Assembly (NCBI GenBank): GCA_036555665.1
Contig: DATBKW010000373.1
Coordinates: 1,898-65,897, forward strand
Length of the DNA stretch: 64,000 nt
Direction: 5' to 3'
Source: Solirubrobacteraceae bacterium
GTDB lineage: Bacteria; Actinomycetota; Thermoleophilia; Solirubrobacterales; Solirubrobacteraceae
Shown: piece after piece, positions 4,889 to 52,092 of the stretch
Numbering within the stretch: the first letter of the stretch is position 1
Layout of the letters: each line of letters opens with the position of its first letter
Translations under genes and position numbers: made by a program
Notes under the pieces: model-generated
Told to the model about the DNA's origin: nothing
What the model saw: only the letters and a program-made list of their open reading frames with translations
Databases searched by the model: none

Positions 4889-6216
<1,328 letters not shown>

Positions 6217-7505: not shown

Positions 7506-8795
7506 GTGGCCCGGGTGGTCCGCTCCTCCTACGACCGGGAGATCCTGGGTCTCGCGGTGCCGGCGCTCGGTGCGCTCGCCGCCGAGCCGCTGTACCTGCT
7601 CGTCGACACCGCGATCGTCGGTCATCTGGGGACACCGCAGCTCGCCGCGCTCGCGCTCGCATCGACGGTGCTGGCGAGCCTGATCGCGCTGTGCATCTTC
7701 CTCACCTACGGGACGACGGCGCGCGTGACGCGGCTGCACGGCGCGGGCCAGGACGCCGAAGCGGCCGCCCTCGGCCCGCAGGCGCTGTGGCTCGCGCTGA
7801 CCGTCGGCGTGATCGTCGCGGGAGCCGTGGCCGCGCTGGCCGACCCGCTCGTGCATGCGCTCGGCGGTCAGGGCGACGTCGCGGACATGGCCGTCAGCTA
7901 CCTGCGCATCGCTTCGCTCGGCGTCCCGATGGCGCTCATCGCGCTGGCGGGGCAGGGCTGGCTGCGCGGCATGGGCGACCTGCGCACGCCGCTGATCATC
8001 GTCGTGGTGGCCAACGCCGCCAACGTCGTGCTCGAGCTGTTGTTCGTCTACGGCTTCGACTGGGGGCTCGACGGCTCGGCCTGGGGGACGGTCCTCGCGC
8101 AGCTCGGGATGGGCGTGGCGTTCGCGGTCGTGCTCCTGCAGGTGTTCGCGGCGCCGGATCCCGGCCGCATCCGCTCGCTGGTCTCGATCGGCGCCCAGCT
8201 CGTGGTGCGGACCGCGGCGCTGCTCGGCTGCTTCGTGCTCGCCACCGCCGTCTGTGCGCGTATCGGCGCGGCGACGCTCGGCGCGCACCAGATCGCCTTT
8301 CAGCTCTACGGCTTCCTGGCCCTGCTGCTCGACGCGATCGCCATCGCCGGGCAGGTGATCGTCGGGCGCGCGCTCGGCGCCGGTGACGCCGACGACGCCG
8401 TGGCCGCGGCGCGGCGGATGATCGAACTGTCGCTCTTCGCCGGCCTGATCATCGGCGGCGTCTTCCTCGCGTTGACGAACGTAGTGCCGCGGGCGTTCAC
8501 CGACGATCCGCAGGTGATCGACCAGGCGCACGACCTATGGCCGCTGTTCTGTGTGATGTGGCCGGTGGCCGCGGTCGCCTTCGCGCTCGACGGGATCCTC
8601 ATCGGCGCCGGTGACACGGCGTACATGGCGGGTGCGATGGTCGTCTCGTTCGTCGTCTTCGCGCCGATCGTGCTCGCCGCCAATACCGTTGCCGTCGTCT
8701 GGGTGGCCATCGACGTGCTCATGCTCGTGCGCGTGGCGACGCTCGGCGCGCGCTTCGCGCGGCGGCGGTGGGTGCTGGTCGGCGCGCACGCGTAG
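7506..8795 (+). CDS. MATE-family efflux transporter (DinF-like)
   Basis: 429 aa, about 12 predicted TM helices. N-terminal 'REILGLAVPALGALAAEPLYLLVDTAIVGHLG' is typical of MATE. Confidence 0.8.
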   Translation: MARVVRSSYDREILGLAVPALGALAAEPLYLLVDTAIVGHLGTPQLAALALASTVLASLIALCIFLTYGTTARVTRLHGAGQDAEAAALGPQALWLALTVGVIVAGAVAALADPLVHALGGQGDVADMAVSYLRIASLGVPMALIALAGQGWLRGMGDLRTPLIIVVVANAANVVLELLFVYGFDWGLDGSAWGTVLAQLGMGVAFAVVLLQVFAAPDPGRIRSLVSIGAQLVVRTAALLGCFVLATAVCARIGAATLGAHQIAFQLYGFLALLLDAIAIAGQVIVGRALGAGDADDAVAAARRMIELSLFAGLIIGGVFLALTNVVPRAFTDDPQVIDQAHDLWPLFCVMWPVAAVAFALDGILIGAGDTAYMAGAMVVSFVVFAPIVLAANTVAVVWVAIDVLMLVRVATLGARFARRRWVLVGAHA

Positions 8796-12176: not shown

Positions 12177-13040
12177 ATGGGCGCGATCCGCACCAACGCC
12201 GCTGCGGCCATGCTCGGCGTCAGCCCCAACACGCTGCGCTCCTGGGAGCGGCGCTTCGGGTTCCCCGAGCCGCAGCGCACCGCGGGCGGCCATCGCCAGT
12301 TCGACCTCTCGGAGATCGAGGCGCTGCGCAGCGCCTTCGAGGAGACGCACAACATCTCCTCGGCGGTCGCCCTCGCGCGCGAGCGCGGCGCCGGGCCCGC
12401 CACGCCGTCGCGCCTGCGCAGCGCGTTTGCGCGTTACGACGAGGTCGACGCCGATCGCGTCCTGGAGGAGAGCCTTGCCGTGCGCTCTGTCGAGCGGACG
12501 GTCGAGGAGGTGCTCCTGCGCGGCGTCGAGGCGCTCGATCCCACGGGCCCCGAGTACGGCTTCGCGTGGCGGTGGGCGACCGGATGGCTGGCGGCGGCGA
12601 TGCGGGTCGCCCCGTCGGCGACGCGCGCGGACGGCGTGCTCGTCTTCGATGCCAGCGCGCCGTGCGACCTCGATGCTCTGCACGCGCAGGCGTTGGAGCT
12701 ATGCCTGCGCCGCCGCGGGCTGCGCACGCTGACGCTGACCGTGGCGCTGGACCCCAGCCGCATGGGTCGCGCGTTGCACGCGCTCGCCCCGCGCGCGGTC
12801 GTGCTCACCGGCCGCCGCGCATCGCTCGACGGCCTCGGGCGCCTCGTGTATGCGGCGCGCAGGATCGGTGGCGACGGCGTCGCGATCTACGACTTCCGCG
12901 GTGCGCTGGGCGCGACGGGCGCGACCACCGTGCCGCGGCTTGGCGACGCCCCGCTGGCGGCGTGCGAGCAGCTCGTCGAGGACCTCGACGGCGGTGCGCG
13001 GGCTCAGCGGCCCGAGCTGATCGCGGTCGGTCGCTACTGA
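12177..13040 (+). CDS. MerR-family regulator with CarH/CarA-like C-terminal module, paralogue B
   Basis: ATG at 12177 within track ORF 12102..13040. HTH 'LGVSPNTLRSWERRFGFPEPQRTAGGHRQF' is nearly identical in pattern to paralogue A, with the same downstream architecture. Confidence 0.75.
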   Translation: MGAIRTNAAAAMLGVSPNTLRSWERRFGFPEPQRTAGGHRQFDLSEIEALRSAFEETHNISSAVALARERGAGPATPSRLRSAFARYDEVDADRVLEESLAVRSVERTVEEVLLRGVEALDPTGPEYGFAWRWATGWLAAAMRVAPSATRADGVLVFDASAPCDLDALHAQALELCLRRRGLRTLTLTVALDPSRMGRALHALAPRAVVLTGRRASLDGLGRLVYAARRIGGDGVAIYDFRGALGATGATTVPRLGDAPLAACEQLVEDLDGGARAQRPELIAVGRY

Positions 13041-13684
13041 GCGCTGATCACCCCGCTCCCGGTGACCGTCCGGGTGACGCGCGCGGGGTTGCCGCCATAG
13101 AGGATCGTGCCGCGGCCCGAGAGCGTCGCCGCGAGGCTGCGCGTCGCGGTGAGCGTGATGGTGCCGTCGCCACTGAGAACGGCTCTCGCGTCGCGCGCGA
13201 CGAGCTCGCGCAGCAGGACGTTCCCTGCGCCGCTGAGGGTGACGCCGAGCTTTGCCGTGGTTCCGGTCGCGGCGATGTTCCCGGCGCCTGCGAGCTTGAG
13301 GTTGTCCAGCACGGGCAGGCTCACGGCCACGAACATCGGGGTCTTGGCATTGAGGCTGCCGGGAGTGGTCCCGATCACCAGCCTGCCCGCGCGCACTCGC
13401 GTGGTGACGCGTCCGAGCAGGTTGCTGTCGGCGTGGACGATGACCGACTGCTTGCCGCCGACATGGACGATGACGTTGTTGGCGCCGGCCAGGTCGATGG
13501 CGCTGAAGGGTGGAAGCTCCCGCACCTGCGTCTTTGCGACGCCCGAGCCGGTGCCCGCCGGGGTGCTCGAGCTGTCGAAGAAGATCCTGTCGATGACGAG
13601 CGTCATCAACAGGAGGACGCCGACTGCCAACAGCGCCAGCTGCAGGCGCCCCTGGCGGCCGATTTCGGTGCGCCGCGTGCTCAT
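13034..13684 (-). CDS. DUF2807-like (putative adhesin head / GIN domain) membrane-anchored protein
   Basis: ATG at 13684 (alternative GTG at 13699). N-terminal TM 'LQLALLAVGVLLLMTLVI'. Repeated beta-helix-like 'LAGAGNI...LSGAGNV...LSGDGTI...LSGRGTI'. Confidence 0.65.
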   Translation of the reverse strand: MSTRRTEIGRQGRLQLALLAVGVLLLMTLVIDRIFFDSSSTPAGTGSGVAKTQVRELPPFSAIDLAGANNVIVHVGGKQSVIVHADSNLLGRVTTRVRAGRLVIGTTPGSLNAKTPMFVAVSLPVLDNLKLAGAGNIAATGTTAKLGVTLSGAGNVLLRELVARDARAVLSGDGTITLTATRSLAATLSGRGTILYGGNPARVTRTVTGSGVISAQ

Positions 13685-13782
13685 GACCTGATCTCCCACG
13701 CACCCTTGCAGCGCGTGAGTGCGAGCACATCCGCGAGCGCCCGCAATGAGCGCCGCGCGGAACTACTGACCGACGCCCGACG

Positions 13783-14169
13783 CTAGCGGCGCTTGACGCG
13801 CGGGCGGCGGTCCATCCGCCGCAGCTCGCGCTCGACGCGCTCGACGCTCTCGGCCACCTGGCTGACCAGGTGCTCGATGCCCTGGTTGCGGTCGAGCTCG
13901 GCGCGAGCGCTCGAGACGGCCTCGCGCAGCATGCGCACCTCGAGGCCGAAGCGGCCGCGCAGCGCGTTGATCTCGTCGTCGTGCGAGCGGCGCAGCCCGG
14001 CGACCTCGTTGGCGTGGCGCTCGCGTGCGACGCAGAGCTCGACCTGGGTCGAGCGCTCCAGGGCGCGCGCGGCCTCCGTGGCGGAGCGCGCGGAGCGCAT
14101 GCGACGGAGCGTCGGGATGAGGAAGACCAGGCCGCAGGCCAGGCCGACGAAGTAGGCGGCTACGTACAT
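13783..14169 (-). CDS. Small membrane-anchored coiled-coil protein, unknown function
   Basis: ATG at 14169 in track ORF 13783..14559. TM 'MYVAAYFVGLACGLVFLIPTL' followed by a charged helical region. Confidence 0.45.
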   Translation of the reverse strand: MYVAAYFVGLACGLVFLIPTLRRMRSARSATEAARALERSTQVELCVARERHANEVAGLRRSHDDEINALRGRFGLEVRMLREAVSSARAELDRNQGIEHLVSQVAESVERVERELRRMDRRPRVKRR

Positions 14170-14269: not shown

Positions 14270-14701
14270 ATGACGCTCGTGCCCGGTGATCCCCTGGCCC
14301 ACCGCGCGCTGGACTCGCTGTTACGCGCGGAGGCGAGCGTCCGTCGGCGCCTTTCGGCCGACCTCGAGCGCGAGGGCCTGAGCGCGTCTGGGTTCAGCGT
14401 CCTTGTAGTGCTCACGACGGCCGGCGGCCAGCTCGAGCTGCGCGCGCTGCGCCGTCGGCTGCAGACGTCGAAAGCCAATGCGACCGAGGTGGTAACGACG
14501 CTCGAGGTCCGCGGCCTCGTCGTCCGCAGCCGCCTGCCCCACGACCGCCGTGCCGCCACGGTTGCGTTGACGCCGCTCGGTCAGGAGGTCGTCGACCGGC
14601 TCTTCCCCGAGCACACCGATCGCGTGCAGCGCGCGTTTGCGGTGCTCGACGAGCGGGAGAAGCGGTCGCTCGCCGAAATCTGCCGCAAGCTCGCGGCCTA
14701 G
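14270..14701 (+). CDS. MarR-family transcriptional regulator
   Basis: 143 aa. Winged-HTH pattern 'LRALRRRLQTSKANATEVVTTLEVRGLVVRSRLPHDRRAATVALTPLG'. Confidence 0.8.
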   Translation: MTLVPGDPLAHRALDSLLRAEASVRRRLSADLEREGLSASGFSVLVVLTTAGGQLELRALRRRLQTSKANATEVVTTLEVRGLVVRSRLPHDRRAATVALTPLGQEVVDRLFPEHTDRVQRAFAVLDEREKRSLAEICRKLAA

Positions 14702-15942
14702 CCGGCGCGCCGCGTCACGAGCCGGATCCGCAGGCCCTGCGTCGCGTAGGCGATCAGCGCCTGCCCGCGCGTCGTCATCGCGAAGGCCGGCGGGGTGCTG
14801 ACCGCGGAGTCGGTGCCGGAGACGGTTCGCACCGTGCCCACGATCCCGCCCGGGGCGATGCGCACGACGCGCACGCGATGTCGCACGCCGTTGCCGCCGA
14901 CGACCCACGCCGCGTAGCCGGCGCCGCTGTCGACCGCGAGCGCGGCGTCGCGCGTGCGCTCGCCGGGCGGCGTGAGCGCGAGCACGGGCGTGACCGCGTG
15001 GCCGTCGGGCGCGAGCTGCAGCGCCTGCAGCGGCCCGGCCGGCGAGTCGGCGCGCGCGGACACGAAGGTCACGAGCACCTCGTCGTTGGTCGTGGCGATC
15101 GCCTGCGCGGTCAGCGCCCGGGCGGTCGACGGGGCAAGGACGATCGGGGCGCCGAACGGCGCGCCGGGCGCCGCGGATGCGGCCACCAGCGCGCGGCCGT
15201 TCGCATCCGCCTGGGTCCAGACGGCGACGATATGGCCGCCGGACGTGACGGCCAGCTTCGGCGTGCGCGCGAAGCCGCCCGGCGCCGACACGCGCGTCGC
15301 CGGGCCGAACGCGGTCGCCCCGGGCGCGACCGTTGCGGTGTAGATCGCGCCGCCGCTCGGCCAGACGGCGATCAGCGCCCCGTTGGCGAGGCGGACGACC
15401 TGCGCGTCGAAGGTGGCGCCGACGGGCAGCCGCATGGTGACGCCCGGGCGCCCTTGCGGAATCGACCGCACATACGCCGCCGTGCGCCGATTGAACTGCA
15501 CGAGATTCGGGGTCACGAAGGCCGGGTCGTAGCTGTTGGGCGGCCCCGTGATCGCGTTGGGCCCGGTCGTCGCCCCGGTGCGCGTCACCGAGGAGAGCTG
15601 GAGCACGCGAGCGTCGGGGTTGCGGAACTGCCGCCACATGACGAGCGCCGAATGGCCGCTGTAGGTGAGGGCCGTCGAGTCGAGTCCGCGCGTGTCGCGC
15701 GCGGTGATGACCGGCGTGCCCAGCGTGTCGACCGTGCCCTGGCGCAACTCGACGCGGTCGGCGCCGTCGATGTGGCGGACGTAGCCGACGCCGGCGGCGT
15801 CGGGTCCGCCGAGGGCGACGACGGGCTCGCGGGCCTGCCCGCTCACAGTCACCGATCGTGGCGCGCTCCAGGGTGCTGCGTGGGCGGCCGCCGGCGCCAG
15901 CGCGAGCGCGAGCACGGCCGTCAGGACGGTGCGCGTGGTCAT
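14698..15942 (-). CDS. Secreted repeat protein of unknown function
   Basis: ATG at 15942. Signal peptide 'MTTRTVLTAVLALALAPAAAHA/AP'. Recurring '...ALVMW / LIAVW / IVAVW / YAAWV' beta-strand motifs suggest a propeller-like fold. Shares a CTAG stop with MarR. Confidence 0.6.
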   Translation of the reverse strand: MTTRTVLTAVLALALAPAAAHAAPWSAPRSVTVSGQAREPVVALGGPDAAGVGYVRHIDGADRVELRQGTVDTLGTPVITARDTRGLDSTALTYSGHSALVMWRQFRNPDARVLQLSSVTRTGATTGPNAITGPPNSYDPAFVTPNLVQFNRRTAAYVRSIPQGRPGVTMRLPVGATFDAQVVRLANGALIAVWPSGGAIYTATVAPGATAFGPATRVSAPGGFARTPKLAVTSGGHIVAVWTQADANGRALVAASAAPGAPFGAPIVLAPSTARALTAQAIATTNDEVLVTFVSARADSPAGPLQALQLAPDGHAVTPVLALTPPGERTRDAALAVDSGAGYAAWVVGGNGVRHRVRVVRIAPGGIVGTVRTVSGTDSAVSTPPAFAMTTRGQALIAYATQGLRIRLVTRRAG

Positions 15943-16000
15943 CGCCCGTTGCAACGCTCCGGGATACCCCGGGGTTGCGCTCCTACAATTCCCCGTCCAG

Positions 16001-19000
16001 ATGGTGCGTCGTCCCGTCGACCCCCAGCAGTCGTTCCCTGCCCTCGAGGAGCAGGTCCTCGCGCGCTGGCGCGAACGCGACGTGTTCCACGAGTCGGTCC
16101 GCCGCCGCGCGGGCGCGCAGTCGTGGGTCTTCTGGGAGGGCCCGCCGACGGCGAACGGCAAGCCCGGCGCGCACCACGTGCTGTCGCGCGTCTTCAAGGA
16201 CATCTATCCGCGCTACAAGACCATGCGCGGCTACCAGGTCGAGCGCAAGGGCGGCTGGGACACCCACGGCCTGCCCGTCGAGATCGCCGTCCAGCAGCAG
16301 CTCGGGATCGAGAACAAGCGCGAGATCGAGGAGTTCGGGATCGCCGAGTTCAACCAGCGCTGCCGCGAAGCGGTCTTCGAGTACCTCGAGGACTGGAACG
16401 CGCTGACCGAGCGCATCGGCTTCTGGATCGACCTCGAGGACGCCTATCGCACGCTTGACGCAACGTACGTCGAGTCGGTGTGGTGGGCGCTGCGCCAGAT
16501 CCACGACAAGGGCCTGCTCTACGAGGGCCACAAGGTCGTGCCCTATTGCCCGGGATGCGAGACGGCGCTCTCCAGTCACGAGGTCGCGCTGGGCTATGAG
16601 GACGTCGTCGACCCGAGCGTCTACGTGCGCCTGCCGGTCGTCGAGGACGGCGGCCCGCTGCAGGCCGGCGACGAACTGCTCGTGTGGACCACGACGCCGT
16701 GGACGCTGGTCTCCAACGCGGCGGTCGCGGTCGACCCCGAGCTGACCTACGTGCGCGCCAAGGCCGGCCCGCTCGAGGCGCCCGTCGTCCTCGCCGAGTC
16801 GCTCGTCGAGCGCGTGCTCGGCCGCGATGGCGTCCAGGTCCTCGCTCGCTTCCCGGGGGCCGCGCTCGACGGCGTGCGCTACGAGCCGCCGTTCCCGTTC
16901 CTGAAGTCCGACGTCTACGGCGAGCGTGGGCACACCGTGCTGCTCGGGGATTTCGTCACCGCCGACGACGGCACCGACCTCATGCACACCGCGATCGCCT
17001 TTGGCGACGAGGACTTCCGCCTCGGCCAGCAATACGGGCTCAACGTCGTCAACCCGGTGCGCCTGGACGGGACCTACGACGAGCGCATCGGCCCGTACGC
17101 GGGACGCAAGGTCCAGGACGCCAACCCCGATCTCATCGAGGACCTGCGCGCGCGCGGGCGCCTGCTGCGCGCCGAGACGATCGAGCACGCCTACCCGCAT
17201 TGCTGGCGCTCGGGCGACCCGCTCATCTACTACGCCAAGCGCTCGTGGTACATCGCCACCTCTCAGCTGCGCGACGAGCTCATCGAGGCCAACAACCAGG
17301 TCGCCTGGCACCCCGAGCACATCCGCGACGGGCGCATGGGCGACTGGCTGCGCGGCAACGTCGACTGGGCGCTGTCGCGCGAGCGCTACTGGGGTACGCC
17401 GCTGCCCGTCTGGCGCTGCTCGCGCGACGCCGAGCACACCCACGTCATCGGGTCGTTCGATGAGCTGGAGGAGCTGTCCGGCGTGCGCCTCGAGGACCCA
17501 CACCGCCCGTTCGTCGACGAGGTCGGCTTCCCGTGCCCGCAGTGCGGGGCGCGGATGGAGCGCGTGCCCGAGGTCATCGACGTCTGGTTCGACTCGGGTT
17601 CGATGCCCTTCGCGCAATACCACGCGCCGTTCGAGAACGAGGAGCGCTTCCAGGCCCGCAGCTACGCGAACTTCGTCTGCGAGGCGATCGACCAGACGCG
17701 CGGGTGGTTCTACTCGCTGCTGGCCATCAGCGTCCTGCTCTTCGACCGTTCGCCCTACGAGACGGTCGTCTGCCTGGGCCTGATCCTGGACGCCGAGGGC
17801 CAGAAGATGTCGAAGTCCAAGGGCAACATCGTCGTGCCCTGGGACGTCATCGACCGCTTCGGGGCCGATGCCTTCCGATGGTACTTCTTCACGGCCAAGA
17901 ACCCGTGGGACGCGTACCGCTTCAACGTCGACACGATCGGCGACTCGATCCGGCTGTTCCTGCGCCAGCTGTGGAACACGTACGCCTTCCTGTCGACGTA
18001 CGAGCGGGAGCGGCCTGGCGAGGTGACCGACCTGGATCGCTGGATCCTGTCGCGTCTGGCCGCCACGGTCGAAGAGGTGACCGAGCGCATGGACGCGTTC
18101 GACGCCACGACCGCGGGGCGCGCCATCGCCGAGTTCGTCGACGACCTGTCCAACTGGTACGTGCGCGGATCGCGGCGGCGCTTCTGGGAGGGCGACGGCG
18201 CCGCGTTCACGACGCTCGAGACGGCGCTGGTGACGGTCGCCAAGCTGCTCGCGCCGTTCACGCCGTTCGTGGCCGACGAGCTCTACGACAACCTCGACGG
18301 GTCCGAGCCGTCGGTGCACCTGTGCGACTGGCCGGAGCCCGGCGAGCGCGACGTGGGCCTCGAGCACGCGATGACGGTCGCGCGCGAGACGGTGCGCCTC
18401 GGGCTGTCGGCCCGTGCCGCTGCGAAGGTCAAGCTGCGCCAGCCGCTGAAGGAGGCGGTCGTGGTCGCGGTCGGTCGCGAGCGCGACGGCATCGAGCGCT
18501 TGGCCGACATCGTGCGCGATCAGCTCAACGTCAAGGAGCTGCGCTTCGTGCAGGCGGCCGACGAGCTGGGCTCCTACGAGGTCAAGCCCAACTACCGCGC
18601 GCTCGGGCCGCGCTTCGGCAAGGCGATGCCGCAGGTCGCGGCGGCGGTCGCGGCGCTCGACCCGACGCATGTTGGCGAGGCGCTGCGCGAGGGTCAGCCG
18701 ATCGGCATCTCTGTCGACGGCCATGACCACGAGCTCGGTCCCGACGACCTGCTGCTGGCGATGGCGCCGCTCGAGGGCTACCAGCTCGAGCGCGAGGGCT
18801 CGCATGCGGTGGCGCTGGAGCTCGCCCTGGACGACGAGCTGCGCCGCGAAGGCCTGGCGCGCGAGGTCGTGCATGCGGTGCAGAACGCGCGCAAGGCGGC
18901 CGGCCTGGCCGTGGAGGACCGCATCCGGCTCGTGCTCGGTGGCGACGACGAGCTCGTCGGCGCAGCGCAGGCGCACGAGGAGTACCTCGCTCGCGAGGTG

Positions 19001-19127: not shown

Positions 19128-20219
19128 ATGGTGCTCGCGCGGCGGGGGCGCGAAGATCGCGCCGTGGCGTTTGTGTGCCCCGTCTGCGGCTATCCGGATC
19201 TCGAGGATCCGCCGCGCGGCGCGTCGGGCGCCGGCTCGCTGGAGATCTGCCCGTCGTGCGGCTTTCAGTTCGGCAAGTCCGACGACGACGACGGCTGGAG
19301 CTACGCGGCGTGGCGCGAGCGGTGGATCGCGGAAGGGATGCCGTGGGACCGCGGCTCGTCGGAGCCTCCGGAGGGCTGGGACCCGCGGGCGCAGCTGCGC
19401 GCTGTGGTGAGCGACGGCGAGCACGGGCAGACGTTCGTCGAGTACCTGGCGGTGTTCGCGGTCATCGTGGTGATCGTCGGCGGGTTGGTGACCGCGGCGC
19501 CCAGCGTGGCGTCGGGGGTCACCTCGACGGTGTGCGCGCTGATCGGGAGCGGGTGTGGCGGGACCGGTGCGGGTGGAGCGGGCGGCGCCCCAAGCGCCTC
19601 AACTCCTCAGCAGCCAGGCTCGTCGACTGGCCAGGCTCCTGCGCTCGGCGGCATCGGAGGAGTGCTCGCGGGCGTGGGCTCCGGCGGCGCGGCGTCCAAC
19701 CCGCTCGGCGAGCAGGTCCAGACCGCCGCGGGCGACGCGCAGGCGCTGCGCGACGCCGGCGGCAACGCGTGGGGCCGCCCCGGCACGCTCGCGCGCCACT
19801 TCCGCGACCACGGCGGCGACTTCGGTGCGACCGACCCCGAGGACTACGCCCAGCGCGCACAGGACTTCTTCCAGCGCGCTGTGAGCGAGCGCCTGCCGAC
19901 CAAGGTCGACACCGACGGCACGATCCGCGTCTACGACCCGGCGACGAACGAGTTCGGCTCCTACAACGCCGACGGCACGACGCGCACGTACTTCAAGCCG
20001 ACGCTCGGGCAGGCCTACTGGGACAACCAGCCGGGCAGCGATCCGTGGGCGGAGCCGCCTGGCGGCGGGGAGCCGCCGGCGGGCGGGAAGCCTCCCGCGG
20101 GTGAGGAGCCGCCTGCGGGCGAGGAACCGCCCGCGCCCGAGGTCCCAGAGGTCCCGGAAGTCCCCGAGGTGCCCGAGGTCCCGGAGTTGCCCTTCCCGGA
20201 GATCCCGATCATCCCCTGA
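19128..20219 (+). CDS. Tripartite protein: N-terminal 4-Cys zinc ribbon, Flp/TadE-like hydrophobic segment, Gly-rich linker, toxin-like C-terminal domain, Pro-rich tail
   Basis: Frame of track ORF 18669..20219 after the ileS stop. ATG at 19128 (alternative GTG at 19164). 'CPVCGYPD...EICPSCGF', then 'EHGQTFVEYLAVFAVIVVIVGG', then 'ARHFRDHGGDFGATDPEDYAQRAQDFF...TRTYFKP'. No stop separates the modules. Confidence 0.55.
   Translation: MVLARRGREDRAVAFVCPVCGYPDLEDPPRGASGAGSLEICPSCGFQFGKSDDDDGWSYAAWRERWIAEGMPWDRGSSEPPEGWDPRAQLRAVVSDGEHGQTFVEYLAVFAVIVVIVGGLVTAAPSVASGVTSTVCALIGSGCGGTGAGGAGGAPSASTPQQPGSSTGQAPALGGIGGVLAGVGSGGAASNPLGEQVQTAAGDAQALRDAGGNAWGRPGTLARHFRDHGGDFGATDPEDYAQRAQDFFQRAVSERLPTKVDTDGTIRVYDPATNEFGSYNADGTTRTYFKPTLGQAYWDNQPGSDPWAEPPGGGEPPAGGKPPAGEEPPAGEEPPAPEVPEVPEVPEVPEVPELPFPEIPIIP
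20136..20180 (+). repeat. 9-nt coding tandem repeat encoding (PEV)5
   Basis: ccc gag gtc / cca gag gtc / ccg gaa gtc / ccc gag gtg / ccc gag gtc, read directly. Confidence 0.9.
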
Positions 20220-20327
20220 CGGACCTGCACGCGGTCTCTGACACCTGCGCGATCACTTCCCAAGTCCCGGCTCGTGGATGCCGAAACAGGACGAGTCCTT
20301 TCCCCCGACGATGGGACAGCACATGTA

Positions 20328-20367
20328 AGGGCGGTCGCGTTCCCCAACCGCGGCCGCCCTCTTTTAT
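20328..20367 (+). terminator. Rho-independent terminator-like hairpin
   Basis: AGGGCGGTCGCG-ttccccaac-CGCGGCCGCCCT (12 bp, one G-U) followed by CTTTTAT. Lies 109 nt after the stop at 20219. Confidence 0.55.
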
Positions 20368-20466
20368 GCCTTTGCGCGGCGTCTGTAAAAAGACGCGCGC
20401 GATCACCTGGTCCGACGGCTCACCGCACGTACCGTCGCTGTCGTACACGCGACGAAGGGAGCACAG

Positions 20467-20823
20467 GTGGACCGGGACAAGCTGAAGACGGTGGTCGAGG
20501 GGATCCCGCCGGGGCACTGGATGAGCTACGCCGACGTCTGTGTGGCGGCAGGCGGCTTCCCCGACGAGGCGCGCAGCGTCAACCAGCGCCTGATCCAGCT
20601 CGAGGTGCCCAATGCGCACCGCGTGCTGTGCGCCGACGGCAGGGTCGCCGAGAAGGCCCTCGGCGACCCTGCGCAGGTGCGTGAGTTGCTCAACCGCGAC
20701 GGCCTGGTCTTCGACGAGCGCGATCGCGCGAGTCAGGACGCGCGCGTGCGGCTCGCCGAAGCCGGCGCGGATGAGCCCGCGGCCCCGAGCAAGCGCAAGC
20801 GCGTGTCAGCGCGTGGCGGCTGA
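20467..20823 (+). CDS. Alkyltransferase-like (ATL) protein: MGMT DNA-binding domain without acceptor Cys
   Basis: 118 aa, GTG start preceded by AAGGGAG. '[27 protein letters not shown]...VPNAHRVL' aligns with the MGMT 'PCHRV' region but has Ala in place of Cys. Confidence 0.7.
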
Positions 20824-46502: not shown

Positions 46503-48173
46503 TCAGGCCGTCGCCGGACCCGTGCCGCTGCGCAGCAGGCTGCCGCGGCCGGTCGGCCACGGCAGGCAGTTCGTGCCCGAGCGCGGGACGCGGTAGACGT
46601 CGAGCCCGTGGTCGAAGGTCGAGAGAACGATTTCCAGGCGCCCGTCGCCGCCGAGATCGGCGATCGAAGGCGCGGCCGGGACGCCGATCCCGTTGCCGTC
46701 GTTGCCCTGATGGCGAAGGCGGATGTCGTAGAGCCGCTTGCCGGCGGCGGAGAGCACCACGAGACGGCCCGAGCGCCGGGTCGCTCCGTACGTCCCGAAG
46801 ACGAGCTCGGACGTGCCGTCGCGGTTGAGGTCGGCGGCCACCACCTCCGAAGCAAACGTTTTCTTGGCGCCGCGGGCGTAGTCGTAGCGCCATAGGCGCC
46901 TGCCGGTCGGCCCCACCGCGTAGACGTAGCCGTCGGGAACGGGCGCGACGATCTCGGGGCGGCGGTCGCCGGCGATGTCGACGACCGTCGGCGCGGGGAT
47001 GCCGCTCGGCGGGTAATAGTCGCTCGCACCGCGCACCGCCGGCTTGCGGCTGCGCGGCAAGGTCGTAAAGCCCTTGTGCCTGCGGGCCGAGCGCACGCCG
47101 CCGTTCTGCGCGCCGTCGAGCGCCATGAACGCGTAGGCCTGCGTCTCGTAGGGCTCCTTCATCTCCACGTTGGGCAGCCCGATCACCTCGTTGTGCCCGT
47201 CTTGGTCGAGGTCGGCGAGCGACGGCGGCGATGCGGTCCACTGCAGCCACGCGGTCTTGCGCACGTCGGGCCACGGACCGGTGTGGCGGTGGTACTGGTC
47301 GTTCTCGACCTTCGGGCTCAGCCAGCGGATGAACTGCCCCCACCCCAGGCGCGCGCCGACGTGGCCGCTCTCGCGGTTCGTGTACCACGGCGAGGCGAGG
47401 ACGGAAGTGCCGTCGTCGTTGAAGACGTTGATCTGGTGGTTGTCGAAGGTGACGACGATCTCCAGCTGCGGATCGTCGTCGAGGTTGCCGATCCCGACGT
47501 TCTCGCCGTAGGCGCCGTAGCCGTGGTTGCCGACGCCGTTGAAGCCGGCGTCGGAGGCGTTGTAGCGAGGCCATGCGCCCGGTGGCCCGTACGGCCTCCC
47601 GGAGGCATCGAAGACGAAGACCTGCGAGCCGGTCGACGACGTGTTCGTCGTGGTCACCACCACCTCGAGGCGGCCGTCGCCGTTGAGGTCGGCTGCCGCC
47701 ATGCCGCGCGCCTCGGGGCACTGGCCACCACTGCACGTCGACGCCGGCCAGCCCGCCTTGAGCGCCAGGCGGCCACCGACGAGGTCGTAGGCCGCGACCG
47801 TGCCGTCGTTGCCGCCGACGACGATCTCGGGGACCTTGTCGCCGTCGAGGTCCGCCACCACGCCGGGCGCGTAGACCCGTCCCTTGGTGGCGGTGCCCTT
47901 GCCGAGCTGATGCCCGGCGGCGTCGAAGACGAAGGTCGAGTAGTCGGGCGCGACGATCTCGAGCTTGCCGTCGCCGTTGAGGTCGGCCAGCCCGGGCGAC
48001 GAGAACCATCCGGTCTCGCCGGTCGGGATGTTGCGGACGAAGCGCGGCTTGGCGACCTTGGCCTTGGCCTTGGTGCGCACGCATGCGGTGGCGGCGGCGT
48101 CGGAGGCGGGCGCGGCCGCGCCGCAGCTCAGCACGAACGCCGCGAGCGCGACGAGGGGCAGGCGCCGGCGCAT
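46503..48173 (-). CDS. Secreted FG-GAP repeat (integrin-alpha-like beta-propeller) protein
   Basis: 556 aa. Signal peptide 'MRRRLPLVALAAFVLSCGAAAPA'. Seven Ca-binding-like blades 'DLNGDGKLEIV', 'DLDGDKVPEIVVG', 'DLNGDGRLEVVV', 'DLDQDGHNEVI', 'DIAGDRRPEIV', 'DLNRDGTSELVFG', 'DLGGDGRLEIVL'. Confidence 0.7.
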   Translation of the reverse strand: MRRRLPLVALAAFVLSCGAAAPASDAAATACVRTKAKAKVAKPRFVRNIPTGETGWFSSPGLADLNGDGKLEIVAPDYSTFVFDAAGHQLGKGTATKGRVYAPGVVADLDGDKVPEIVVGGNDGTVAAYDLVGGRLALKAGWPASTCSGGQCPEARGMAAADLNGDGRLEVVVTTTNTSSTGSQVFVFDASGRPYGPPGAWPRYNASDAGFNGVGNHGYGAYGENVGIGNLDDDPQLEIVVTFDNHQINVFNDDGTSVLASPWYTNRESGHVGARLGWGQFIRWLSPKVENDQYHRHTGPWPDVRKTAWLQWTASPPSLADLDQDGHNEVIGLPNVEMKEPYETQAYAFMALDGAQNGGVRSARRHKGFTTLPRSRKPAVRGASDYYPPSGIPAPTVVDIAGDRRPEIVAPVPDGYVYAVGPTGRRLWRYDYARGAKKTFASEVVAADLNRDGTSELVFGTYGATRRSGRLVVLSAAGKRLYDIRLRHQGNDGNGIGVPAAPSIADLGGDGRLEIVLSTFDHGLDVYRVPRSGTNCLPWPTGRGSLLRSGTGPATA

Positions 48174-48188
48174 GGCCGGGCACCCTAC

Positions 48189-51018: not shown

Positions 51019-51087
51019 CCGGACTCCGACCGGCAGCGCTGACGGGCTGAACACTTTCGAATGCAGCGGTGATGCGAGGCCGGCGGC

Positions 51088-52092
51088 GTGCTACACCGCG
51101 CCATCGCGGCTCTCGTACATACGACGGCCTCGCGTCAAATCCGCCGGTGGCCGGCCGATCAGCGGGCGGTGGCCAGCCGCCGCACCGTCACCATCACGCT
51201 CGCCGTCGCGCTCTTCGGCGCGGCCCTGAGTCCCCTGGGCGCGTCCGCCGACGCGGCGCCGGCGATCGCGCCCCACGCGCGCGCCGGCGGCCTCGTGCGC
51301 TTCAGCGTCCCGGTCGTCGGTGCACGCACGTGCGTCGTGCGAGCGGCCGGTCGCCGGCGGACCGCGAACGTTGCCGGCGCCGCCAGTGTCAAGGTCAGCT
51401 TTCGCGTCGCCCGTCGTGCCCACGCCGGCACGTGGCTGCTTTCGATCGCCTGCGCGCCGTATACGTCGCAGCGCGTCGTGCTGACGGTCACCGGCGCCGC
51501 GCGCGCGCAGGCGCCGAGCGGGAGGCTCGTGGCCGGCCCGATCCGCATCGCGGTGGTGAAGCCCCCGCCCTCCGCGCGGCCACCGCGCACGCCGCCTGTT
51601 CCGACGCCCGCGGCCGCGCCGGCCGTCGCTGCGCCCATGTCGGAGGCCGATGCCCTGGCCCGCGCCCAGGCGGACTGGGTGACCTACGGCCCCGGGTACA
51701 TCGCGGTGTTCCGCAACGGCCAGTGCACGGACTGGGCCGCGCAGAAGCGCCCCGACATCGTCGAGCGGGCCACCGTCCGGCTGTGGGCCGACCACTACAT
51801 GGGCCTGCCCGACCCGGGCGTGAGCTGGAACGGCGGCTTCTGGGACGACATGGCGCGTGCCGCGCGGATGCCGGTCGGCACGATTCCGAAGGCGGGCGCG
51901 ATCGTCACGTTCGACCCGGGCACCATGGGGGCCGGCCCGGTCACCGGGCATGTCGCCTACGTCGAGAGCGTCGACGACCACGCCGGCACGTTCACCGTCT
52001 CCGAGATGAACGCGCCGGTGCCGTGGGTCGTCTCCCACCGCACGATCGCGAAGAGCGCGATCGCGCAGGGCGGCATCACCTTCGTCTATTAG
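51088..52092 (+). CDS. Secreted CHAP-domain protein (peptidoglycan amidase/endopeptidase-like)
   Basis: 334 aa (alternative GTG at 51169 gives a cleaner signal peptide 'ASRRTVTITLAVALFGAALSPLGASA'). Pro-rich linker. CHAP Cys 'NGQCTDWAA' and His 'GHVAYVESV'. Confidence 0.7.
   Translation: MLHRAIAALVHTTASRQIRRWPADQRAVASRRTVTITLAVALFGAALSPLGASADAAPAIAPHARAGGLVRFSVPVVGARTCVVRAAGRRRTANVAGAASVKVSFRVARRAHAGTWLLSIACAPYTSQRVVLTVTGAARAQAPSGRLVAGPIRIAVVKPPPSARPPRTPPVPTPAAAPAVAAPMSEADALARAQADWVTYGPGYIAVFRNGQCTDWAAQKRPDIVERATVRLWADHYMGLPDPGVSWNGGFWDDMARAARMPVGTIPKAGAIVTFDPGTMGAGPVTGHVAYVESVDDHAGTFTVSEMNAPVPWVVSHRTIAKSAIAQGGITFVY

Follow-up and report, generated by a model that had tools for sequence, protein, structure and literature searches.

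The gene described here lies in a stretch of 64,000 nucleotides (the window) of contig DATBKW010000373.1 from a Solirubrobacteraceae bacterium. It occupies positions 19128–20219 of the forward strand, with ileS on one side and a small gene with a weak PF01035 match on the other, and its product combines a predicted toxin domain with a Zn-ribbon domain that is probably the cognate immunity module. No stop codon interrupts this single open reading frame (ORF), which encodes 363 residues counted from the ATG at 19128 and ends with the stop codon 20217–20219. The metagenomic contig L001 (JGI 3300036759), which is identical to the window, has a separate gene call that yields the same 363-residue product with its start at 19128. 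The G+C content of the window is 72.8%, and its closest genomic relatives are metagenome-assembled genomes (MAGs) labelled Solirubrobacteraceae, Solirubrobacterales or 'Actinomycetes'.

From its N-terminus, the protein consists of a Zn-ribbon with a Trp-rich half, a short segment with a hydrophobic helix, a Gly/Ser/Ala-rich linker, a globular domain and a Pro/Glu-rich tail. An earlier note on this DNA had laid out the ORF in these terms, and the ORF listing and the sequence agree with its frame and with every residue position it gave. The Zn-ribbon motifs are CPVCG at residues 17–21 and CPSCG at residues 41–45, followed by tryptophans at positions 57, 62, 66, 73 and 84. In-frame GTG codons at 19404 and 19407 encode Val93 and Val94. 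The toxin-like block covers residues 213–303 (19764–20036) and is followed by the PPAG/(PEV)n tail. The start codon itself is uncertain. Starting at the ATG adds 12 poorly conserved residues, while the GTG at 19164 (Val13), which may be the true start, gives 'VAFVCPVCG'; homologues start, for example, with MPFTCPVCG, and the general form read from the alignment is 'M-P/A-F/Y-T-C-P-V-C-G'.

The complete architecture is present in one ORF in at least ten metagenomic proteins with 47–78% identity (P0001–P0010). These ten share the module order Zn-ribbon/Trp-rich domain, 'GERGQ-xxxE' plus hydrophobic helix, Gly-rich linker, globular domain and a (PEV)n tail ending in IPEIPIIP. Comparison with an 84%-identical relative (L004) gives ratios of nonsynonymous to synonymous substitution rates (dN/dS) of 0.17 (Zn-ribbon), 0.13 (toxin domain) and 0.10 (tail, the lowest value); the helix and the linker have values of about 0.5. 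Because the architecture is kept in ten homologues and dN/dS is well below 1 in the conserved modules, the gene is, judged by sequence comparison, real and selected as a unit. In view of the same dN/dS values and the conservation, we rejected a pseudogene or an accidental fusion.

The earlier note had also raised the possibility that two products are expressed from the one frame. A Zn-ribbon protein would then end or be processed on its own, and the toxin would be translated from the internal GTG at 19404 or 19407; a related suggestion is that the ORF is an accidental, non-functional read-through fusion. Both GTG codons are indeed in frame, and in two loci from Nanopore-derived MAGs (L006 and L007) the halves lie in different frames. 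Such breaks were seen in long-read MAGs only, a type of assembly in which indel errors are to be expected, and neither the window nor at least ten independent homologues have a stop codon that separates the modules. The alignment has no conserved Met or Val at the putative internal start, and all conserved modules are under purifying selection. The order of the modules is moreover the reverse of the usual toxin-then-immunity order, and a simple loss of a stop codon therefore cannot create the fusion. We give these explanations almost no weight.

Fusion loci are rare. The reversed order within one ORF was found in only nine loci, all of the Solirubrobacterales type. A profile of the full-length fusion, which captures the Zn-ribbon and toxin families together, matches 5820 of 1.84 billion cluster representatives at E ≤ 1e-3, and among the 150 best-scoring matches listed only a few look like a Zn-ribbon–helix–toxin fusion. 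The fusion is therefore a rare, lineage-restricted variant.

The globular domain (residues 213–303, 19764–20036) is with high confidence a predicted RNase-type toxin, closest to the toxin of the contact-dependent growth inhibition (CDI) system in PDB entry 8EY4 and more distantly related to the colicin D tRNase, with a BECR-type fold. A phmmer search of PDB sequences with the single sequence retrieves 8EY4 chain A ('PT-VENN domain-containing protein', the CDI toxin) with E = 7e-8. A profile built from 52 sequences gives E = 4.8e-12 for the same entry, which is its sole PDB match. AlphaFold2 (AF2) models residues 206–312 with a predicted local distance difference test (pLDDT) score of 92.8 as two helices followed by four strands. 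The top Foldseek match of this model is again 8EY4, a CDI toxin–immunity complex from Escherichia coli O32:H37, with a target template modelling score (TMt) of 0.87, an r.m.s.d. of 1.5 Å and 32% identity. The next matches are the colicin D tRNase structures 1TFO, 1TFK, 1V74 and 5ZNM (probability 1.0, TM score 0.48–0.53, E about 4e-3 to 8e-3).

All near-invariant residues of the toxin family are present in the window protein. The candidate catalytic residues are His224, His228, Asp231, Thr285/Thr287 and Lys290. The Tox-ColD signature is described as [KH]K, Hxx[ED], [ST] and [TS]xxK (Zhang et al., 2012; PMC3482391). When this signature is laid on the sequence by eye, rather than by structural alignment, His224, His228-Gly-Gly-Asp231, Thr285 and Thr287-Tyr-Phe-Lys290 fit, and the second Lys is replaced by Phe225. 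The earlier note had likened this block to the C-terminal RNase modules of polymorphic toxins and had proposed a profile search of the region. That search returns no Pfam match at E ≤ 1 for residues 93–363 or residues 201–311, Colicin_D included, and no NCBIfam match either; its likeness to the CDI toxin and colicin D is nevertheless borne out by the PDB sequence matches and by the fold. On reading the sequence, no VENN pre-toxin motif was found upstream of the domain.

The same domain forms the C-terminus of proteins with very different N-terminal parts. It ends Rhs proteins (P0015, P0023, P0025, L009, L027, L030 and L078), PT-HINT proteins (P0021, P0024, L008 and L016), a protein with a type VII secretion system (T7SS) T7SS_signal/WXG100 module (P0022) and proteins with a Sec signal and Pur_ac_phosph_N/fn3 domains (L031 and others), and it is also found behind a bare signal or transmembrane segment. 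Because it is shuffled among unrelated N-terminal trafficking modules, we regard it as a polymorphic-toxin cassette. The shuffling, the 8EY4 sequence match and the AF2/Foldseek match together uphold the toxin-like character that had been proposed.

The Zn-ribbon/Trp-rich domain (residues 13–95, 19164–19412) carries its four Cys ligands at positions 17, 20, 41 and 44 (19176–19187 and 19248–19259). The family-invariant residues Cys20, Gly21, Cys41, Cys44, Trp66 and Trp73 are all kept. AF2 models the domain with a pLDDT of 79.7, and the last predicted helix ends at residue 94. Neither sequence nor fold searches found a relative of this domain in the PDB. Membership of PF14206 (Cys_rich_CPCC), which had been suggested as a check, does not hold: the window domain scores 14.9–15.0 bits (E about 0.02) and the gathering cutoff is 24.5. 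Similar weak matches, over the first ∼27 model positions and with a best E of 1.8e-4, are seen in 56 of 68 Zn-ribbon relatives, and one tandem member lies above the cutoff. The resemblance to Cys_rich_CPCC consists of two CPxC-type knuckles; the Trp-rich helical half falls outside the model, and any kinship of the Zn-ribbon with this family would be distant. When the protein was scanned with PADLOC, Pfam and NCBIfam, in full length and module by module, nothing rose above threshold and only generic Zn-ribbon noise appeared.

Gene neighbourhoods point to the function of this domain. Loci were surveyed by a family-alignment scan of one genome per species and of JGI metagenomes, followed by tblastn with each module separately. 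In 118 loci, a Zn-ribbon homologue is encoded as a gene of its own, 80–100 residues long, 0–60 nt downstream of the toxin domain and often overlapping the toxin stop codon. Among the hosts are Verrucomicrobiota, Acidobacteriota, Proteobacteria, Firmicutes, Actinomycetota, Planctomycetota, Gemmatimonadota and Bacteroidota. Standalone homologues number 75. The Zn-ribbon is found without a full-length toxin match in 39 loci, some of which are true orphans and others truncated toxins or contig ends. Tandem arrays in one polypeptide occur with two copies (P0085 and P0135) and with four (P0136), and these resemble the 'polyimmunity' proteins known from other families of immunity protein (PMC3482391). 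No fusion locus has a second Zn-ribbon gene in tblastn; each has the one N-terminal copy.

The ranking behind this count used similarity to the full-length fusion. Loci that contain both domains were thereby favoured, which weighs against a simple reading of the count. Two toxins that were matched through the toxin domain alone were therefore examined, a PT-HINT toxin of Brevibacillus laterosporus and an orphan cassette behind an Rhs/PT-HINT gene. A Zn-ribbon homologue of 84 or 87 residues comes directly after each, at distances of 9 and 2 nt.

Natural alleles of the ileS–ATL locus add to this picture, ATL (alkyltransferase-like) being the gene beyond the fusion gene. In contigs from five samples, with the same ileS–ATL–thioredoxin locus, only a 110-residue Zn-ribbon protein (P0028) is encoded. 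The segment missing from this allele corresponds to 19432–20261 of the window, as defined by blastn breakpoints in the syntenic contigs L085–L088. It comprises the helix, the linker, the toxin and the tail, begins right after the 'GERGQ' codons and ends 42 nt beyond the stop codon. Its start thus falls exactly after the Gln101 codon, one residue beyond the predicted cleavage site discussed below. In another syntenic contig (L089), the Zn-ribbon and helix remain as a 153-residue ORF, and the counterpart of window positions 19687–20622 is inverted (3476–4418 of L089), which affects the toxin domain with its tail and also the spacer and the 5′ part of the ATL-like gene; this could be a genuine rearrangement or an assembly chimera. 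As these two independent alleles indicate, the toxin half is dispensable while the Zn-ribbon is retained, as is expected of an immunity gene where the toxin circulates in the population.

Linkage to the toxin whatever the delivery module, orphan and tandem copies and retention upon toxin loss are the operational features of an immunity protein, and the Zn-ribbon shows each of them. On this genomic evidence, it very probably belongs to a family that elsewhere acts as the cognate immunity protein of the toxin. The earlier idea of a cis-encoded immunity part is thereby strongly supported. A different role would be that of a cytoplasmic accessory that travels with the toxin, such as a chaperone, an adaptor, a secretion signal or a regulatory zinc finger. 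In keeping with such a role, the Zn-ribbon matches no named immunity family in Pfam or NCBIfam, has no structural relative and was counted in a sample biased towards both domains. Adaptors and chaperones, however, track the N-terminal delivery domain, whereas the Zn-ribbon tracks the C-terminal toxin across Rhs, HINT, T7SS and Sec proteins. It also occupies the downstream, often overlapping, position of an immunity gene, forms orphans and tandem arrays and is kept where the toxin is deleted. We consider an accessory role highly improbable. The immunity assignment has one further point against it. The immunity protein of 8EY4 seems unrelated to the Zn-ribbon, as neither sequence nor model searches return an 8EY4 chain for it; this is usual for polymorphic toxins, but it means that the interaction has no structural precedent.

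Two kinds of unusual Zn-ribbon gene were also seen. In P0011, P0133 and L079 (9008–10570), the toxin is followed by the Zn-ribbon in one ORF with a linker of ∼25 residues, and these toxin-first ORFs may reflect loss of a stop codon, a sequencing error or a second kind of fusion. P0060 combines the Zn-ribbon domain with a ClpX C4 zinc finger, and P0019 combines it with DUF2809.

As had been observed before, no obvious immunity gene follows the fusion gene: a 247-nt spacer with a hairpin leads to the syntenic ATL-like gene, and there is no Zn-ribbon-family ORF. The identification of this neighbour as an ATL gene holds only loosely, its weak PF01035 match being compatible with ATL. We rejected the ATL-like gene as an immunity gene, since it keeps its syntenic place where the toxin is deleted and other fusion loci lack it. 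The ORFs in the spacer were likewise rejected; the genome has 73% GC, and these ORFs are spurious, overlapping either the ATL-like gene or the strand opposite to it. The terminator that had been placed in the spacer is plausible. A hairpin with a 12 bp stem and a 9-nt loop, followed by UCUUUUAU, lies at 20328–20368 (stem-loop 20328–20360) and folds with −26.9 kcal/mol (z = −2.6). A pattern scan found no canonical terminator; it missed this hairpin because its loop limit is 8 nt.

Between the Zn-ribbon and the linker lies a segment (residues 96–124, 19413–19499) that resembles the class III signal of Flp-type prepilins. From residue 98 it reads EHGQTFVEYLAVFAVIVVIVGG, and in its context ...DGEHG/QTFVEYLAVFAVIVVIVGGLV. 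The leader would end in Glu98-His99-Gly100, with the predicted prepilin-peptidase site between Gly100 (19425–19427) and Gln101 (19428–19430). Glu105, at position +5 (19440–19442), is followed by Tyr106 and the hydrophobic helix, and the site thus reads G100/Q-T-F-V-E105-Y-LAVFAVIVVIVGG, which is of the G/XXXXEY form. Nowhere else in the window is this motif found. All of 11 fusion proteins have Gly(−1) and Glu(+5), as do the Flp-like proteins of L007, and a Glu(−2) is listed as equally invariant in both groups. A class III signal is described as a hydrophilic leader ending in Gly, a Glu at +5, the G/XXXXEY motif and a stretch of 20–25 hydrophobic residues (PMC10191384), and the segment has the hydrophilic Gly-ended leader, the Glu, the motif and the hydrophobic stretch. 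According to the same source, the leader remains cytoplasmic and the helix lies across the membrane, Sec translocates the remainder and the peptidase cuts on the cytoplasmic face; Tad peptidases lack a methylase domain, and 'modular pilins' bear grafted domains (PMC10191384).

The gene context in relatives is consistent with this reading. A short A24 peptidase gene (161–201 residues), which contains only PF01478 and no methylase domain, immediately precedes the fusion gene in L002 and L003, and beside the A24 gene there is a gene for a ParA/CbiA TadZ-like ATPase. In L007, an A24 and TadZ-like pair is found about 4–5 kb from the fusion gene. Within 5 kb of the fusion gene, the same locus encodes two Flp-like prepilins of 79–88 residues, '...REERG/QDLIEYGGILILVAAIIAALLATG' and '...REDG/QDLVEYGGLLILVAAIIGALLAAG'. 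The helix of the L007 fusion, 'GERG/QALVELGGLLILIAAIVGALLAIG', is the same as those of the two prepilins at about 21 of 27 positions by hand count. A 523-residue protein has the same kind of leader ('SESG/QEVLEW'). The two prepilins, the 523-residue protein, the TadZ-like gene and the short A24 gene, which is next to groEL, make up a cluster at 5759–6025, 8136–8375, 12304–13875 (reverse strand) and 15052–16908 of L007. The small Flp-like proteins of L007 have no Pfam Flp_Fap match, and one has a weak DUF6133 match; with no L007 pilin-like protein matching Flp_Fap, the Flp-type proteins of this lineage seem to escape current models.

Several observations weigh against export by a pilin-type route. 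The segment has no match to Pfam Flp_Fap or TadE even at E ≤ 10, and a longer region has no Pfam or NCBIfam match, so that the Flp/TadE-like character first noted for it stands on the motif and the gene context and not on a profile. A search of the 64-kb window by tblastn with the L002/L003 A24 and TadZ-like proteins, and with Pfam on 20 large ORFs, found no A24, TadZ or other Tad gene, only housekeeping genes; a short A24 and TadZ-like gene were seen near the fusion gene in L002, L003 and L007. Four of about seven distinct genomic contexts have no adjacent A24 gene. These are the ileS–ATL context, an S15 peptidase (L005 and L091), and MMPL or a membrane protein (L172 and L176); no A24 gene is adjacent to P0006 or P0009. 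No Tad ATPase or platform gene (TadA/B/C) was seen near any locus examined. The leader would be ∼100 residues long and include a folded domain, and the mature part would be 263 residues. The prepilin leaders so far described are much shorter than ∼100 residues. One paper on pilins says only that leader length varies (PMC10191384).

Much of this would be accounted for if the product were an uncleaved bitopic membrane protein. The segment would then be a signal anchor, the immunity domain would be cytoplasmic and the toxin would be tethered to the surface by the linker, as a contact-dependent toxin of a monoderm that uses no pilus machine. The window and several relatives without nearby A24 or Tad genes are in agreement with such an arrangement, as is the lack of a Flp/TadE profile match. 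A flexible linker of ∼88 residues and a Pro-rich tail suit display across the wall, and a Sec-signal protein with the same toxin and tail (P0132) indicates that the module can work without a pilin-type helix. A plain anchor leaves unexplained, however, why Gly(−1) and the membrane-unfavourable Glu(+5) are invariant, why the helix is nearly identical to those of neighbouring Flp-like prepilins and why A24 peptidases are repeatedly close by. Immunity alone does not discriminate, as a tethered immunity domain could still work. We regard an uncleaved anchor as unlikely, although it is the strongest of the rival readings.

Three further observations concern this part of the gene and its surroundings. 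In P0130, a fusion with an internally deleted Zn-ribbon, a leader of normal length (∼33 residues) precedes 'GERGQ/AMVEYGG'. The P0006/P0008 subclade has a lipoprotein gene with a 4-nt overlap across the stop codon of the fusion gene (L172, 1723–2499; L003, 3693–3827); the L172 product has 258 residues, an '..AGCGS' lipobox and no Pfam match. Such a lipoprotein could play an accessory part or give additional protection on the outer side of the membrane. A gene for an X-Pro dipeptidyl-peptidase (Peptidase_S15 and PepX_C) immediately precedes the fusion gene in L005 (7147–9465) and L091 (3–1835). This neighbour is notable given the X-Pro-rich tail, yet it may reflect shared synteny only.

The linker (residues 125–212, 19500–19763) is Gly/Ser/Ala-rich, predicted to be extracytoplasmic and poorly conserved, with indels in the alignment (dN/dS 0.48 and 13 gap codons relative to L004); Cys138 and Cys145 are conserved in most relatives. 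The Pro/Glu-rich tail (residues 304–363, 20037–20216) contains PPAG repeats and (PEV)5 and ends in the conserved 'PFPEIPIIP', its extreme C-terminus being conserved throughout the fusion family. The toxin match ends 53 residues before the stop codon in L001 (49–78 residues in the fusion loci L001–L007), compared with 0–10 residues in non-fusion relatives, and the tail is absent from Rhs/HINT-type relatives. A similar tail, PxIP...IPIIF, is found in P0132, where a Sec signal and another domain precede the same toxin. The tail therefore travels with the toxin and not with the pilin-type signal.

Taken with the gene context, these features suggest that the fusion is probably a self-contained toxin–immunity unit on a pilin-type export signal, in which the immunity domain forms the cytoplasmic leader of the Flp-type signal. 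By analogy with Flp prepilins, the balance tips slightly, if at all, towards processing by a prepilin peptidase with Tad-type export. A more specific proposal is that the immunity domain serves as a leader peptide, a single prepilin-peptidase cut both freeing it inside the cell and producing a pilin-like toxin for a Tad-type machine to polymerize or expel; this we offer tentatively, and lean slightly against it. In either reading, the topology, the cleavage, the use of a Tad machine, the RNA target and the neutralization are steps that we infer. The nascent protein would insert N-in/C-out, with the linker, toxin and tail translocated, so that the Cys4 Zn-ribbon would remain in the reducing cytoplasm. 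A TadV/CpaA-type A24 prepilin peptidase would cut after Gly100 on the cytoplasmic face, freeing an immunity protein of ∼100 residues and leaving a mature 'modular pilin' with the toxin as its grafted head. The freed product would have the size of standalone immunity proteins, because the last Zn-ribbon helix ends ∼6 residues before the predicted cut. A Tad-type machine would extract the pilin-like toxin, which could be displayed on a filament or at its tip, or released, and so reach neighbouring cells. The freed Zn-ribbon would shield producing cells and their kin against toxin that arrives from elsewhere. The Pro-rich tail, which ends in IPEIPIIP, would be a constrained extra module, possibly a wall spacer or an element for contact with, or entry into, the target cell.

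As in the polymorphic toxin systems (Rhs, CdiA, LXG and PT-HINT; PMC3482391), the toxin domain is combined with many delivery modules, and a small cognate protein is genetically linked to it and occurs in orphan and tandem immunity copies. The window protein differs from these systems in that the presumed immunity domain precedes the toxin within a single polypeptide instead of having its own gene behind it, and in that the toxin is not at the extreme C-terminus, being followed by a Pro-rich tail of 60 residues. The delivery signal, moreover, would be of the pilin type, and the words 'pilin' and 'prepilin' appear nowhere in the text of the 2012 survey of trafficking modes (PMC3482391). With the CdiA-CT of 8EY4, the toxin domain shares the H-x-x-x-H-G-x-x-F motif, 32% identity and a TM score of 0.87, and with both 8EY4 and colicin D (Foldseek probability 1.0, TM score ∼0.5) two helices followed by a four-stranded sheet. 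It differs from the 8EY4 CdiA in having no VENN motif, no CdiA/two-partner-secretion delivery, since its N-terminus consists of the Zn-ribbon and the helix, and no homologous CdiI partner. It differs from colicin D/ImmD in having no Pfam Colicin_D match and a presumed partner that is an unrelated Zn-ribbon without a solved relative. No paper on 8EY4 was found in the literature searched, and likewise none on CPCC immunity.

A further parallel is offered by bacteriocins with a double-glycine leader, which lose an N-terminal portion at the membrane when the toxic portion is exported. The fusion protein would differ from those bacteriocins in that the portion cut off is a complete immunity protein, kept inside the cell and still functional, and in that the cut is made by an aspartic peptidase of the A24 type on the cytoplasmic face.

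Flp prepilins and TadE/TadF share with the segment a leader ending in Gly, Glu at +5, G/XXXXEY, a hydrophobic helix of ∼20 residues and methylase-less peptidases nearby. Unlike in Flp prepilins, the leader is ∼100 residues long and itself folded, and the mature part has 263 residues compared with about 50. The 'modular pilins' (PilB and PilC of Streptococcus sanguinis; PMC10191384) also have a non-pilin globular module grafted C-terminally to the helix, which is an adhesin there and a predicted toxin here. In a paper from 2025, 'Flp pilins' are named, without detail or analysis, as one kind of partner of the unrelated ARC toxin domain (PMC12605009), and a pilin–toxin fusion is therefore not wholly unprecedented.

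Elsewhere in the window, an ORF of 414–501 residues at 14698–16203 (reverse strand), between a MarR-family gene and ileS, has a signal-like N-terminus and no Pfam match. Genes for an FG-GAP repeat protein (46506–48188, reverse strand) and for a CHAP-domain protein of the peptidoglycan amidase/peptidase type (51073–52089, forward strand) have no evident link to the toxin gene.

The analysis assigns a probable immunity function to a widespread, unannotated Zn-ribbon family of ∼85 residues and defines the partner toxin family. The layout of the fusion appears to be new: toxin and antidote are present in one precursor, which would be split by a membrane protease, and the literature searched yielded neither an immunity domain that acts as leader for its own toxin nor such a polymorphic-toxin layout. 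If the proposal is true, one ORF would guarantee 1:1 synthesis of toxin and immunity protein. For the Kil killing apparatus of Myxococcus, which is Tad-like, no toxin has yet been identified (PMC8460266). The fusion protein is a candidate cargo that would link Flp/Tad-type pilin signals to interbacterial toxin delivery, and Tad/type IVc pili would then be a contact-dependent route of toxin delivery in monoderm Actinomycetota.

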